This document shows positions 48,487 to 56,598 of a stretch of 64,000 nucleotides of DNA, in pieces (within the stretch, counting starts at the first letter, position 1; every line of letters starts with the position of its first letter). The DNA comes from Eledone cirrhosa (Eukaryota). Location: NCBI GenBank assembly GCA_964016885.1, contig OZ024741.1:55304001-55368000 (forward strand). Reading direction: 5' to 3'. Position numbers and translations under genes: made by a program. The notes under the pieces were generated by a model. It was not told where the DNA came from and made no database searches. It was given only the letters and a program-made list of their open reading frames with translations.

Positions 48487-49000
48487 ATAACGAAGGAAAT
48501 GTGGTCAGGAACCAGGTGGACCATAACGCACCAAAGTACTCAATACTTAGGGTAGTACAGTGGGTAATAGGAACAAGTAAGACCCTTACTTGTTCCTATA
48601 TATATATATATATATATAACGAAGGAATTGTGGTAAGGAAACAGATGGAACATAACGCACCAGAGTACTCAATACTTAGGGTAGTAGAGTGGGAAATAGG
48701 AAAAAGTATGACCCCGACGGCAGAGCTCAAGCCGTTTCAACGGCTATTTCTGGACGAGTCCAGAAATAGCCGTCGAACCTTTTTCATATATATATATATA
48801 TGTGTGTGTGTGTGGGAAAAGAGTCAGAACCCCGATGGCTGAGCTTCGACCATTGCGACAGCTCTAAACTAGCTGTCGCCACGGTCTGAGCTCAGCCGTC
48901 CGGCCCTAACTCTTTTCGTATTACCCACTCTACTACCCAGAGTACCGAGTACTCCGGTGCATTATGCTCCACCTGGTTCCTTATCACACTTCCTTCGTTA
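48487..49000. mobile_element. Three diverged copies of a short (TA)n-anchored element (ataacgaaggaa...gggtagtagagtgggtaata), each ending in a fold-back hairpin; probable PLE 3'-end fragments
   Basis: Copies at ~48487-48600 (+), ~48617-48786 (+) and ~48812-49000 (-). Hairpins: ataggaacaagtaa/ttacttgttcctat; cggctatttctggac/gtccagaaatagccg; ggctgagct..gcgacagct/agctgtcgc..agctcagcc. Confidence 0.65.
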
Positions 49001-49494
49001 TACATATATATATATGTAAGAATATTTTCGAAACAGCGAGCGAGCTTGAAATTATAAATGTAAGCTATCGCCGTATTTTGACTAAAGAAATTAAAGAAAC
49101 TTATTTAGCCTGACAGTGGGGTTAAGAACCCTGGGAGAAATGGAAAAAGATGAGTATTGACGTACATGTACGTCAATATATATATATATATATATATTGA
49201 TATATATATATATATATATATATATATATATATATATATATATATATATATATATGTGTGTGTGTGTGTGTGTGTGTGTGTGTGTGTGTGTGTGTGTGTG
49301 TGTGTGTGTGTGTATATAACTGAAAAAAAGGAAAAAACGAACACAGACATATATATATATATGTGTTCAAATCGTAATAGATAAAAATCGCTAAGGTGAA
49401 AAAAATACCAGCTACAGGCAATAGGGTTTGCTGGACTCAATTTAAGAACAAATTAAGAAAAATAAATAGAAACCAGTATTGTGGTAACTACCAT

Positions 49495-49575
49495 CACCCA
49501 GACGGTCTTTGATAGAACCGTTTCGCAATATTATTTGTGAAGAGAAATACCAAATTCCAGGCTCATCAATGGGTG
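49495..49575 (-). ncRNA. Type I hammerhead ribozyme (family A), inverted copy with C3-to-U core mutation, probably impaired
   Basis: Reverse complement of the 49759-49839 motif, but the core reads TTGATGA (plus-strand A at 49569). Confidence 0.75.
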
Positions 49576-49758
49576 TTGAATTTAGTATGCCCCTCACTTC
49601 TACTTCTAAATCAAATGTAGTGTAGACCCGGCTGCTATTTTTAGTGGCGTAAGTCTACGCGACACGCTAAGTTCGGAAACCATGTGCGTTATATATACAC
49701 ACACTTTCCAGTTTTCTATTTGATTTAGAAGTAGAAGTGAGGGGTATACTAATTTCAA

Positions 49759-49839
49759 CACCCACTGATGAGCCTGGAATTTGGTATTTCTCTTCACAAA
49801 TAATATTGCGAAACGGTTCTATCAAAGACCGTCTGGGTG
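49759..49839 (+). ncRNA. Type I hammerhead ribozyme (family A), intact core, GUC cleavage site at 49831-49833
   Basis: caccca-CTGATGA-gc(stem II)gc-GAAA-cggtt ctatcaaa gaccg-TC-tgggtg; stems I and III pair. Confidence 0.88.
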
Positions 49840-50003
49840 ATGGTAGTTACCACAATACTGGTTTGTATTTATTTTTCTTAATTTGTTCTTAAATTGAGTC
49901 CAGCAAACCCTATTGCCTGTAGCTGGTATTTTTTTCACCTTAGCGATTTTTTGTCCATTACGATTTGAACACATATATATATATATATATATATATATAT
50001 ATA

Positions 50004-53160: not shown

Positions 53161-53167
53161 TATATAT

Positions 53168-54860
53168 ATTTTTATTTTTATTTTTATTTTTATTTTTATT
53201 TTTATCTAAACATTCCTCATGAAAAATTAAGCTACCCTAAAAGCCGATGCTCCAAATTTTTTGAATTAACCTTACACTTGATAAACTTATATGTTAAATA
53301 TAGGAACATATGTAGACATTATTGGACATCATAATCTTTTTTTGCGATATTCCTTGCTAGATGTGATTTGATAGATAATTTTTGGCTTTGTCTTGTAGTG
53401 AACTTGGCAATATATTGTCAATTAACTTTGAAGGGTTGTTCTTTGTGGTTTATTTTTATTTTCATTTTTATTTTTATTTTTATTTTTTATTTTTATTTTT
53501 ATTTTTATTTTTATTTTTATTTTTATTTTTATTTTTATTTTTATTTTTATTTTTATTTTTATTTTTATTTTTATTTTTATTTTTATTCTTTTAGTATTGT
53601 AGTATTCTATAATATTTTTATTTTATTAATATTTTTATATGTAAATTTTTATTTTTAATATTTTTATATGTAAAGTTTTAATACGTAATATTTTTAATAC
53701 GTAGTATTTTTAATATGCAATATTTTTATTATGTAATATTCTTTCGTAATATTCTTTTTTAGTTTTCTATTCTATATTTTTATATATTTTTTTTTTATAT
53801 ATTTTTACTTATTATCATTATTATTGTTATCTCTGCTTATAATATAATATATATTTTCGATTAGTATATTGAAATCTGCTCTCTATTTCTGCTTGATAGA
53901 TAATCTAGTAGAGTAATCGCAAGAATAATAATACGCTCAAATTTGTATACCACATTGAGAATGTTTTCCGGTAACTTTGAATTTGCGGAGTGAATCAGTT
54001 GGATTCACATAGACATATGAAGTTTTTAAAAAACTAAACATAAGATAATGAATTTTCACGCATTGTGAATACTTGTTTCATTCAGGAATACTGATATTTA
54101 CAATATAGTGTAAGTTTTATAAATACTAATACATTAAAACATAGGGTTTTCTACGCCTCGAATATGTCTGGCTATTTTTAAATTTCTTCTCTCTCTATAT
54201 CTCTCTATATCTCTCTATATATCTCCCTTACATTAATACTTGAGCTAAATAAATAAATAAATAAATAAATAAATAAATAAATAAATAAATGCATCATTGA
54301 TACACTTACTCAAAATTGACCTCCCACTACCTAATTTTTCTATATCTATATTTATATATGTATCTATCTCTACTTCCTCTCTCTCTCTATATATATATAT
54401 ATATATCTTTCTGTCTCTTTACATGAAGCTCTTCGCTTTATCTATCTTTCCATCTCTCTATTTTGTCCCATGCATTTCTTCTTTTTCTTTTTCTTCTTTT
54501 TCTTCCTTTTCTTCGTTTTGTCTTTCTTTCTTTCCTATTTCCCTCTTTTCTCTCTCTCTTTCTTTCTCTCTGTATTTTCACTGCTAGAGTGAACCTCTTC
54601 AAATGAAGTTGATGTTTATTACGGTATGTCGAATATATTTATCTATAAAACTGTTTATATTGTATTTTGTCTGATGAAGGCATAGCATATTGTTAATATG
54701 CTATCCCCGAAATATATATAATGAAATAAATATGGTTTTATAAATATAGTTTTCCATTTATTTAATATTGTAAATATACTCCAAGTATTTGTCGAGTGCT
54801 TTTATATCAGTTATAAATATTTACTAGTTGTAACCCAACAATTTTAAATATAACTTTACA
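53168..54860 (+). repeat. Right arm: inverted 3' UTR/pLTR of the PLE, with ~90 nt of extra 3' tail (54773-54860)
   Basis: Matches the left arm apart from a handful of substitutions and microsatellite lengths. The extra tail is homologous to 59470-59570(-). Confidence 0.93.
54663..54728 (+). ncRNA. Hammerhead ribozyme in the PLE pLTR (family B), minimal palindromic stem III
   Basis: tattttgt-CTGATGA-aggc atagcatatt gtt aatatgctat cccc-GAAA-tatata-TA-atgaaata; 8-bp stem I with two GU pairs and a 10-bp perfect helix in stem II. Confidence 0.82.
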
Positions 54861-55335
54861 TATATATATATATATATATGTCTGTGTTCGTTTTTTCCTT
54901 TTTGTTCAGAGCTAATTTACTGTAATGAGACTATTTTGAGTTTCTAACTCAATACAAGCTTTCCGAAATATCAACCATACGCATCATATATATATATATA
55001 TATATATATATATATATATATATATATATATATATATATATATATATATATACATATACATATATATATATATATATATATATATATATATATATATATA
55101 TATATATATATATATATATGGTTGCCAAAACATATATATCTGTGACTTTGTCTAGTTTGTGTATATGTAAATATATATATATATATATATATATATATAT
55201 ATATACTTTCATTTATCGTTTTCGGTGCGCCCAGCCGACTAAACTCACTCGATATGCAAATTAGGCTGCTCAGCCGTTAATATGTATAAGGAAAGTATTT
55301 ACTTTCAGACGTTCAACCATCTGGCAGGAAGGTAT

Positions 55336-55378
55336 ACGATGCTGACGATAGCTAATAAGCTTGAAACTAGTACATCGT
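55336..55378 (+). ncRNA. Minimal type I hammerhead ribozyme (family C), GUA site, within a ~290-bp element (~55211-55500)
   Basis: acgatg-CTGACGA-tagct aata agctt-GAAA-ctag-TA-catcgt; stem I extended by gttcaac/gttgaac and caggaa/ttcctg. The first pair of stem II is a U-U mismatch. Confidence 0.8.
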
Positions 55379-55783
55379 TCCTGTGTCAGTGTTGAACAAA
55401 AGGTGACGTGGTTGCCTAAACACTGTACGGCGTAATTCGGGCTGTTTGTTTGTTTACAAACAAACAAACCGAGCATTATAATAAATGTTCGGTAAACCGA
55501 TACGTGCATATATATATGCGTGCATGTATGTATATATATACATACTACTGTACATCTGTAAACATATATGTATGTACGTATACATACATACATACATACA
55601 TACTTACATTTAAGTAACTGCCGTACTAAGAGTGAGAAATGAAATTTCGTTTCATTCTATTCCATATATATATATATAAAGATTTACATATACACAAACT
55701 AGACAAAGTCACAGATATATATGTTTCGGCAACCATTCACGATATGGCTCAATGATGAATTAATAAATTAAATAATCAGAGCA

Positions 55784-56598
55784 ATATACTATAAAGTATG
55801 TCCATAGAATCATTTTATAATATATATACACCATTTCCTCTCCCAATTAGTATAATTAACCACACAAAAAATCAATTCAACCAGGCTATAAGATCAAAAG
55901 GCACCTATGAAGAAATAGTAGATAAATAAACGACAGCAATCTATTCGCGACCAACCGCCATAGAATATTTACCCAACATTTCAATAGCACGTGGAGTGGG
56001 CTGGTTGCTAGAAAGCGCAGCCCAATATTGCCCAAATTGCATCTCGACCTTATGGGAGATTATTAAATATAAAGATTTACATATAGCAACCAGCCCACTC
56101 ACCGTAAGCAACCAATCACATTCTTTCTGACTTGACCACTGCCACGTCACAGTTCTTAGCCATTTTGAATTCGTTTCTGGCGGGGATCACTTAAGAAAAT
56201 TCTTTGTCCAAATGAGTTTGTTTCCTGATGAGTTCGAAGCTCGAGATTTTATCCTTAATAGGATATTTCCGAAAGCAAACGAAACCCTAAGGGTAGAAAC
56301 GTAAACCTGGTATGTGTATATGCATTTTTTCTTCTAACTTTAATTTTATACCTAATTGTGTATGGTTGACGGTATATTTAATCGATTTCCACGTGCTATT
56401 GAAATGTTGGGTAAATATTCTATAGCGGTTGGTCGCGAATAGATTGCTGTCGTTTATTTATCTACTATTTCTTCGTAGGTGCCTTTTAATATTATAGCCT
56501 GGTCTAATTGATTTTTTGTGTGGTTAATTATGCTAATTGGGAGAGGAAATGGTGTATATATTTATCAAATGATTCTATGGACATACTTTATAGTATAT
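55784..56598. mobile_element. Non-coding fold-back element, family D: ~210-bp inverted arms around a ~390-bp spacer that contains a hammerhead
   Basis: 55784-55995 is the reverse complement of 56388-56598 with modest divergence; the right end runs into (TA)n. Confidence 0.85.
56220..56300 (+). ncRNA. Type I hammerhead ribozyme (family D), long stem II, GUA site at 56293-56295
   Basis: gtttc-CTGATGA-gtt...tatcct taat aggata...aac-GAAA-ccc taa ggg-TA-gaaac. Confidence 0.82.

Follow-up and report, generated by a model that had tools for sequence, protein, structure and literature searches.

The palindromic repeats found in a stretch of the Eledone cirrhosa genome are very probably Penelope-type retro-insertions: each would represent one insertion unit within (TA)n, and such a unit probably arises when reverse transcriptase (RT), starting at two neighbouring sites close to the 3' boundary of the element, extends both of the cut target strands, so that two 5'-truncated copies are left head to head. 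The window, the whole stretch of 64,000 nt (GCA_964016885.1, contig OZ024741.1, positions 55,304,001-55,368,000, forward strand), was analysed between its positions 48487 and 56598. Inverted arms are present in a Penelope-like element (PLE; 49998-51608 and 53152-54778, with segments of 826, 529 and 427 nt at 98-99% identity), in a repeat named family D (49383-49616 and 49718-49951, 234 nt, 98%) and in a second one named family A (55822-55995 and 56388-56561, 174 nt, 96%), and the length and similarity of these repeats exclude chance. (TA)n tracts occupy positions 48360-48489, 49176-49255, 49973-50005, 54986-55205 and 56589-56640. An initial sequence-only reading had described three palindromes whose 3' ends point outward, mostly into (TA)n; all three are real and tail-out, but several boundaries had been misplaced, and the (TA)n at 49973 is not the end of D but its internal microsatellite, the point at which the PLE inserted.

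Throughout the genome, each outer end of such units falls on one of two set positions, T1 or T2, where T2 corresponds to T1 plus the first 81 (PLE), 86 (D) or 113 (A) nt of the next tandem unit, referred to below as the extension. The 4.9-kb palindrome is a young, very abundant PLE that is 5'-truncated and joined to an inverted copy of its own 3' region:

49998-53158, minus strand: PLE main copy, whose 5' truncation lies 3160 nt from its end; its T1 outer end (no extension) adjoins (AT)n
49998-51700, minus strand: pLTR-like 3' region of the main copy
51708-52376, minus strand: GIY-YIG-like ORF of the main copy
52336-53151, minus strand: RT ORF of the main copy
53152-54859, plus strand: inverted copy, likewise 5'-truncated, which holds 1.63 kb of the 3' region and, at 54779-54859, the extension of 81 bp

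The outer end of the inverted copy is of the T2 type and adjoins (AT)n at 54860-54879, whereas the left arm ends at 49998 without extension; the inverted arms had been recognized correctly at first, except that the right arm is 81 bases longer before it meets (TA)n. The reading frame of the main copy is broken at a poly-G run (52353-52365). In the parent element of about 4 kb, an ORF of 738 aa encodes a telomerase-like RT, its C-terminus being GIY-YIG-like, and the 3' region of 1.7 kb is pLTR-like; the tandem junction of the element was demonstrated, and a fixed 3' boundary, frequent 5' truncation and partial tandems (pLTR) are all present.

An AlphaFold model of the PLE RT (mean pLDDT 85) was compared with the PDB using Foldseek and the top five matches were telomerase RTs (TERTs; best E 6e-10), and on the basis of this predicted structure the RT belongs to the telomerase-related lineage. 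A profile constructed from 21 homologues matches a retron RT (E 0.023), and the Pfam GIY-YIG family is matched by 3 of these homologues (best E 0.0025). The C-terminus is designated GIY-YIG-like from GIY/YVG-like motifs in the translation, which also displays a Cys-rich linker, and from relatives, as Atlas neighbours bear GIY-YIG, RVT_1, HTH_animal and DUF8422. Pfam searches with the window ORFs and the full PLE ORF returned no family, and a sequence search of the PDB with the single PLE protein returned no match. Rfam detected no hammerhead in the window copy of the PLE (E<=1) or in the pLTR-ORF junction of another copy (locus L102; E<=10), and over the whole region only microsatellite-driven miRNA noise was obtained. 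The T1 boundary (UUGUA/A) had also been considered as a hammerhead cut together with a CUGAUGA at 54671, a candidate that was dropped as the flanking helices were unconvincing by eye.

Family D is a 521-bp and family A a 681-bp non-coding repeat unit, with extensions of 86 bp and 113 bp, respectively, and both contain a hammerhead-like motif. In the window, family D is represented by:

49313-49616, minus strand: left (inverted) copy, unit 222-521, with a T1 outer end and a hammerhead-like motif in which C3 is changed to U
49611-49988, plus strand: right copy, unit 114-485, into whose internal (AT)n the PLE has inserted
49759-49839, plus strand: hammerhead-like motif, with CUGAUGA at 49765, CGAAAC at 49809 and a predicted cut after 49833
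54868-54962, plus strand: remainder of the right copy, unit 474-514 followed by unit 14-78 of the extension, with a T2-type end

The PLE palindrome is nested inside family D, since the right copy of D picks up again past the PLE, at 54868-54962, with a junction deletion of about 32 bp. The inverted pair of D had therefore been seen correctly, but its left arm reaches 49313 and its right copy resumes beyond the PLE. The elements of family A are:

55118-55183, plus strand: lone fragment of 66 bp, unit 48-113, which is extension only, with (TA)n on both sides
55671-56085, minus strand: left (inverted) copy, with a T2-type outer end and a short (TA)n at 55671
56084-56598, plus strand: right copy, unit 167-681, whose T1 end runs into (TA)n
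56220-56300, plus strand: hammerhead-like motif, with CUGAUGA at 56225, CGAAAC at 56280 and a predicted cut after 56295

The left copy of A consists of unit segments 1-113 (55671-55783, the extension), 470-681 (55784-55995) and 92-182 (55995-56085), so that the arm of this genuine inverted pair extends further than first described, via 55783 to 55671, and has an internal deletion of unit 183-469. In the case of D, the minimum free energy (MFE) fold of the motif forms helices I and III, and its match to Rfam RAGATH-1-hammerhead scores 23 bits (E 0.21), under the gathering score of 56.3. In the case of A, the core CUGAUGA...CGAAA...UA with a 5-bp helix I was recognized by eye only, the MFE fold is not hammerhead-like and an Rfam search with the motif gave no match. 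The head of D was also considered as a tRNA-like SINE head with A and B boxes; this candidate was rejected, as no Rfam tRNA was found at E<=10 in 49350-49980 and the unit is longer than the window copy. Blastn of D or A against the co-resident PLE gave no significant match. D and A are thus unrelated repeats with no sequence in common with this PLE, and their palindromes are built in the same way.

The copies at 48.5-49.0 kb, which had been taken for smaller versions of the same architecture, behave differently. They are three units of a fixed-length element of about 190 bp (family S):

48486-48598, minus strand: copy 1, 5'-truncated (unit 101-188), whose inner end has a fold-back of 12 nt
48615-48787, minus strand: copy 2, unit about 53-188 plus a hairpin part that has diverged
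48815-49003, plus strand: copy 3, the full unit of about 190 bp

The outer end of copy 1, AACGAAGG, adjoins (TA)n. A (TA)n(TG)n microsatellite lies between the head of copy 3 and copy 2 and splits their heads, so copy 3 is a separate insertion, and the best reading of the S copies is that of separate insertions, not head-to-head fusions. Rfam returned only hairpin and miRNA look-alikes for this family.

Collecting copies genome-wide, a check proposed with the sequence-only reading, indicates that outer ends are fixed whereas arm lengths (overall 87 to 3766 nt) and inner breakpoints (about 90 to 3770 nt) vary. All 40 scored PLE matches had 99-100% identity, and exact junction matches numbered 1297 for T1 and 1595 for the extension, with 0 for reversed controls. 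From 35 loci of ten kb sampled for PLE architecture, 29 possess a tail-out inverted partner, which is joined directly head to head in 24; five loci combine a full-length, a direct partial and an inverted copy, and six hold solo copies. Arm pairs in these 35 loci span 241/257 to 3766/3759 nt and 5' breakpoints span 241 to 3973. In 24 of the 25 cases in which the partner is visible, its outer end has no extension while the anchor copy has one. On a chromosome stretch containing 79 T1 and 100 extension sites, 55 of the T1 sites were paired tail-out; the tail-out pairs comprised 55 T1-extension, 0 T1-T1 and 2 extension-extension pairs (P = 5.5e-15 for discordance of end types), and no tail-in pair was detected. 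Junctions were direct, and in most of them the overlap was 0-10 nt. Family D has an inverted partner in 18 of 26 loci, and all 13 classifiable pairs are T1/T2, none being concordant; direct partial copies occur in five loci (L004, L006, L020, L024 and L025) and the head of a next unit past the D end in 10. Among 29 family A loci, 20 are partial tandems, with a direct upstream partial copy, and 3 have tail-out inverted copies. (TA)n borders units of D, A, S and the PLE on the outside, the PLE part of this result not being independent as the PLE queries held a few (AT) bases, and with (TA)n flanks on both sides any target-site duplication would be invisible.

These data bear on how the units arise. 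The proposal that they are retro-insertions and not MITEs is borne out by the fixed ends, the variable arms, the RT-encoding parent, the hammerhead-like motifs of D and A and the partial tandems. The accompanying idea, that nicks on both strands prime on equivalent 3' ends, did not survive: an extension of 81-113 bp is present at only one end (24 of 25 visible PLE partners; 55:0:2 for pairs), so the ends of a unit are not equivalent and the simple symmetric two-nick model fails. Self-complementarity of (TA)n is not required either, because the RNA start sites used in vitro have no homology to the DNA that is cut (PMC11167929). If the in vitro behaviour of an Anolis PLE is taken as a model, each strand at the cut would prime reverse transcription, and RT would start internally, at two neighbouring sites. 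A single template is probable for both arms, because arms are near-identical within a unit and units differ (in short palindromes, a median difference of 0/170 nt within units vs 8/170 between loci). Short palindromes or microhomology may then let the two cDNAs pair and join, and D and A would presumably be mobilized in trans by some PLE, not demonstrably the co-resident one.

In a more specific version, which is put forward tentatively and is rather doubtful as a whole, one complex with one template might extend the two ends of one (TA)n break, each from a different neighbouring RNA start site, causing the one-sided extension; like-sense cDNAs might pair at palindromic hairpins, the same rule might apply to the PLE and to two unrelated parasites with hammerhead motifs, and a MITE-like class of about 360 bp might be spawned.

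An unlikely alternative is that only one strand primes and the nascent cDNA folds at a hairpin and copies itself. Such snapping back would fit the near-identity of arms within a unit, the hot spot of junctions seen in 16 fetched short palindromes, where a natural hairpin (TTCACT..AGTGAA) lies some 195 nt from the end, and the over-representation of near-symmetric arms (4 of 21, permutation P 0.002). However, a self-copy should carry the extension, and this is absent from the partner in all but one of the 25 visible cases. In 11 of 21 units the longer arm is the one that has no extension, and in others it is the shorter arm, so neither arm is always the copy, and each arm of the A pair in the window has unit segments that are missing from the other, so neither was copied from the other.

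Far less probable is the chance arrival of two unrelated insertions of opposite orientation in one (TA)n tract. Although (TA)n is a strong target and this explanation is the best one for the 48.5-49.0 kb region, where S neighbours lie head to head and tail to tail with microsatellite between them, it does not account for 57 tail-out PLE pairs versus 0 tail-in pairs, for PLE heads that are fused directly with no (TA)n between them, for the discordance of end types or for arms that are near-identical within but not between units.

Still lower in probability, and largely refuted, is the view that these are true MITEs, or else fold-back DNA transposons bearing terminal inverted repeats. Palindromic units in TA-rich targets have this appearance, and 19 of the 55 pairs form a class of about 360 bp with near-constant arms of 172-203 nt, which looks MITE-like and could be amplified as a unit. 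However, the centre sequences of this class differ among loci, and the range of arm lengths over all units is at odds with constant terminal repeats, as are the asymmetric ends, the partial tandems, the solo 5'-truncated copies and a parent that codes for RT and not for a transposase. Fold-back replication at the DNA level after insertion, or an assembly error, is scarcely credible as well: long (TA)n tracts are prone to breakage, PLE structures trouble assemblies according to the available text of PMC8557442, and the head-to-head junction in the window (53151-53214), which sits in a (TATTTT)n run, is not bridged by public contigs, but fold-back would place microsatellite at the centre and it is found at the outer ends, and the same end rule holds at hundreds of loci with varied breakpoints.

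On the preferred reading of paired target-primed retro-insertion, a very young family whose intact junctions exceed a thousand, together with two unrelated small families under the same end rule, constitutes a natural data set for the PLE mechanism. Any model is constrained by the near-absolute pairing of an extended with an unextended end, by the hairpin hot spot for junctions and by the near-identity of arms inside a unit. The PLE within the internal microsatellite of D exemplifies how (TA)n tracts become insertion pile-ups, and mis-annotation is to be expected as the units resemble MITEs or fold-back elements.

With MITEs and Foldback elements, the Eledone units share a palindromic look and TA-rich sites but not the variable arms, asymmetric ends, RT-encoding parent and partial tandems. 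LINE-1 twin priming, in which the 5' part of one copy is reportedly inverted (Ostertag and Kazazian, in 2001), is similar in that inversion arises during target-primed reverse transcription with the second DNA end as primer, whereas both Eledone arms carry the same 3' region, which is hence present twice. Animal non-LTR retrozymes are said to have been worked on by Cervera and de la Pena. Like these retrozymes or non-autonomous PLE derivatives, as far as they are described in the available part of a preprint (bioRxiv 10.64898/2026.07.22.740005), D and A are short and non-coding, with putative type-I-like hammerhead motifs and head-to-tail partial tandems; in contrast to them, their hammerheads fall under Rfam thresholds, D is often found in inverted units and there is no likeness to the co-resident PLE. 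According to the literature, canonical PLEs with a C-terminal endonuclease carry a hammerhead ribozyme in the pLTR, whereas the Eledone PLE has a putative C-terminal nuclease and no detectable canonical hammerhead.

The available text of Craig et al. (2021, PMC8557442) describes the PLE transposition cycle as undefined and reports that PLE insertions are truncated at the 5' end, form pLTRs, lie next to an inverted copy that is itself 5'-truncated, bear a tail on just one of their ends and target (TA)n, so the inverted 5'-truncated pLTR arrangement that the sequence-only reading gave as known from Penelope insertions is indeed published. The Eledone units agree in truncation, partial-tandem pLTRs, an inverted copy by the 5' end, the one-sided tail, the (TA)n target and a Cys-rich linker before the GIY-YIG-like motif, and differ in the extension, which is 81 bp (PLE), 86 bp (D) or 113 bp (A) as compared to the tail of 30-40 bp given there. 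Poseidon PAc from Anolis carolinensis, the only PLE reconstituted in vitro, cleaves and extends both strands of an AT-rich target (Frangieh et al., 2024, PMC11167929). It uses two adjacent internal RT start sites, the tail being the sequence between them, with no start-site difference between strands in vitro (PMC11167929). Architecture, one-sided tail, (TA)n bias and two-strand cleavage and extension are thus already published for PLEs, in the available text of PMC8557442 and in PMC11167929. As in Poseidon PAc, the start sites of the Eledone PLE would lie near the pLTR-ORF junction, with T2 at 48 nt and T1 at 129 nt upstream of the ATG; unlike in Poseidon PAc in vitro, the two ends of a unit in the Eledone genome almost always lie at different sites.

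The sequence-only reading had described three palindromes, those of a 4.9-kb Penelope-like element (PLE; 49998-54859) and of two small non-coding repeat families, D and A. All three are real, their inverted arms being recovered at 96-99% identity, and several of the boundaries originally drawn had to be moved. Each palindrome is flanked by (TA)n tracts, in which TSDs cannot be read.

Features of the window
C2:55304001-55368000: the window, part of a 3.0-Gb eukaryote genome
49383-49616 and 49718-49951: family D arms, inverted, 234 nt, 98% identical
49998-51608 and 53152-54778: PLE arms, inverted, with segments of 826, 529 and 427 nt at 98-99%
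51708-52376 and 52336-53205, minus strand: PLE open reading frames, at the palindrome centre
55822-55995 and 56388-56561: family A arms, inverted, 174 nt, 96% identical

A 54-bp satellite array, with 96% matches in the parts scanned, occupies positions 1-47610; its strand skew is extreme (GC skew about -0.6), and the block before about 5 kb is skewed differently. In an AT-rich tandem array (about 61450-64000; GC 0.21-0.32), each strand contains long, repetitive open frames. A match to Hammerhead_HH9 at 60224-60295 on the plus strand (37.7 bits, E 1.6e-6, under the gathering score of 52) adjoins a near-perfect hairpin of about 130 nt at 59965-60095; this is probably a further hammerhead-bearing PLE-type repeat.

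In the window copy of the large element, the frames for reverse transcriptase (RT) and nuclease are out of register at a poly-G run (52353-52365), which is shorter in other copies, where a single frame is open; one such copy, L102, carries an intact ORF of 738 aa (L102:720-2933). No Pfam family was found in the window ORFs or in this intact ORF, and the single protein matched no sequence in the PDB. Homologues share 30-46% identity and include cephalopod proteins; many contain PF26215, one contains PF28514, and 3 of 21 match Pfam GIY-YIG. Atlas neighbours bear GIY-YIG, RVT_1, HTH_animal and DUF8422, and a profile built from 21 sequences matches a retron RT (E 0.023). The AlphaFold model (pLDDT 85, pTM 0.82) has TERTs as its top five fold matches, from E 6e-10. 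On the strength of the homologues, the Atlas neighbours and the TERT-like model, together with the genome-wide insertion architecture, the element is taken to be a PLE with a predicted C-terminal GIY-YIG-like domain, the latter at motif level. This is a very young and highly abundant family: for the 3' and RT probes (1120 and 3008 candidates, respectively), 40 of 40 scored matches are 99-100% identical. Contigs of low depth from two other organisms (runs X2 and X3) also contain the RT region (52900-53400), 95-99% alike, and the family is therefore not restricted to Eledone cirrhosa.

The 3' probe gave 39 full-length matches outside the window, and 10 kb were fetched around 35 of them, leaving out three matches on small contigs and one that falls within another locus (L126). 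Coordinates are given relative to the ...ATTGT boundary, d being the distance from it. An inverted partner lies head to head and in direct contact at 24 of the 35 anchors, 5 loci carry, upstream of a full-length copy, first a direct partial copy and beyond it an inverted one, and 6 copies are solo. The shortest arm pair measures 241/257 nt (extended/unextended end) and the longest 3766/3759 nt; the longer arm is the extended one in 10 pairs and the unextended one in 11, and near-symmetric arms are in excess among long units (4/21, P 0.002). Junctions mostly overlap by 0-10 nt, and six have gaps of 47-140 nt. Since such varied arm pairs occur at a constant outer boundary across the 35 loci, outer ends are fixed and arms and inner breakpoints variable, the outcome that had been named as support for retro-insertion. 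Two rare tail-to-tail neighbours were seen past the (TA)n after a copy's end, a 196-nt inverted PLE 3' fragment at L108 (C6) and a 70-nt inverted family A 3' fragment at L083 (C3), both of which would fit a later insertion into that microsatellite.

The two outer ends of a unit are almost always of different types. All anchors reach (AT)n only 81 nt beyond d=0 (54779-54859 in the window); this extended end is designated T2, and the outer end of the partner lies at d=0 (T1, unextended) in 24 of 25 visible cases. In tandems the same 81 nt separate d=0 from the 5' end of the following unit. Relative to the ATG, T2 lies 48 nt and T1 129 nt upstream. The junction patterns, matched exactly over 31 nt, occurred 1297 times for T1 and 1595 times for the extension, with 0 occurrences of the reversed controls. 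From the first 100 listed places per pattern, 79 T1 and 100 extension sites were obtained in C1:0-225.8 Mb; among these listed matches, tail-out pairs (3' ends outward) comprised 55 T1-extension, 0 T1-T1 and 2 extension-extension pairs, and no tail-in pairs were found within 9 kb. The discordance of end types departs from random pairing with P = 5.5e-15, and the window unit follows the rule (T1 left, T2 right).

Among the 55 T1-extension pairs of the C1 matches listed, 19 are spaced 345-398 bp. In the 16 short units fetched, arms of 172-203 nt join at the natural PLE hairpin (TTCACT GCTAG AGTGAA), and centre sequences vary from locus to locus. Arms differ by a median of 0/170 nt within a unit versus 8/170 between loci, a 170-nt comparison that is not valid for four shorter units.

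The family D unit, aligned from genomic copies, is 521 bp long (reference copy L020) and its end reads ...GATTTGAACAC(AT)n GTCTGTG...GTTCAGTTATATA. The (TA)n at 49973, previously regarded as the D terminus, is therefore internal to the unit; the window PLE sits within it, and D continues at 54868-54962. Its hammerhead-like motif (49759-49839; Rfam 23 bits, E 0.21, under the gathering threshold) forms helices I and III in the MFE fold. An inverted partner of 13 to 418 nt is present at 18 of 26 loci. T1 ends pass from unit position 521 into (TA)n, T2 ends add unit 1-86 before (AT)n, and an occasional end lies at the internal (AT)n instead. Each of the 13 pairs that could be classified joins T1 with T2 (chance about 1e-4 under independent ends); two others pair the internal site with T2 and two are unclear.

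Family A (681-bp unit, reference copy L064) has a hammerhead-like core at 56220-56300, recognised by eye only and giving no match in Rfam. Partial tandems (1.x-mers) make up 20 of 29 loci and tail-out inverted copies 3, and thus the window pair represents a minority arrangement; 27 of the 29 loci have a T1 end and 2 a T2 end (plus unit 1-113). In the window, the left copy has its T2 end at 55671 and an internal deletion, and the right copy has its T1 end at 56598. As each arm has parts of the unit missing from the other, neither was copied from the other. Between two (TA)n tracts, at 55118-55183, lies a 66-bp piece of the A extension alone (unit 48-113), an insertion from the T2 site with extreme 5' truncation. 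Pairwise comparison found no sequence shared among D, A and the window PLE.

The copies at 48.5-49.0 kb, which the sequence-only reading had considered smaller versions of the same architecture, are better read as separate insertions, their heads being kept apart by microsatellite. They belong to family S, whose unit of about 190 bp contains a 100-nt hairpin, is fixed at its 5' as well as its 3' end and has (TA)n to either side; from the 81-85% identity of its copies (window 48486-49003; loci L139-L167) the family appears to be old. Some copies are 5'-truncated and tail-to-tail neighbours occur; some truncated copies open with a 12-nt fold-back.

Four features may go beyond published PLE work: the strict end rule, its reach to two unrelated non-coding families (D and A), the near-identical arms within a unit and the clustering of junctions at the hairpin. 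Taken together, they suggest that a unit may be made by one complex on one template.

One PLE account (PMC8557442) describes 5' truncation and pLTRs (formed by partial tandems), an inverted 5'-truncated copy adjoining the 5' end, a tail of 30-40 bp that is often one-sided, and (TA)n targets, and calls the mechanism still undefined. In vitro, one PLE cleaves an AT-rich target, both strands being cut and extended; reverse transcription starts at two adjacent internal RNA sites without homology to the target, and the tail is the sequence between these sites (PMC11167929). Priming by both nicked strands, proposed from the palindromes, thus already has experimental backing for another PLE, and the self-complementarity of (TA)n is not needed as its rationale. 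Retrozymes are argued, in a 2026 preprint, to be non-autonomous PLE derivatives (bioRxiv 10.64898/2026.07.22.740005). As the architecture, the tail, the (TA)n targets and both-strand extension have already been published, the palindromes of Eledone cirrhosa are a clear instance of known PLE biology in a new genome.
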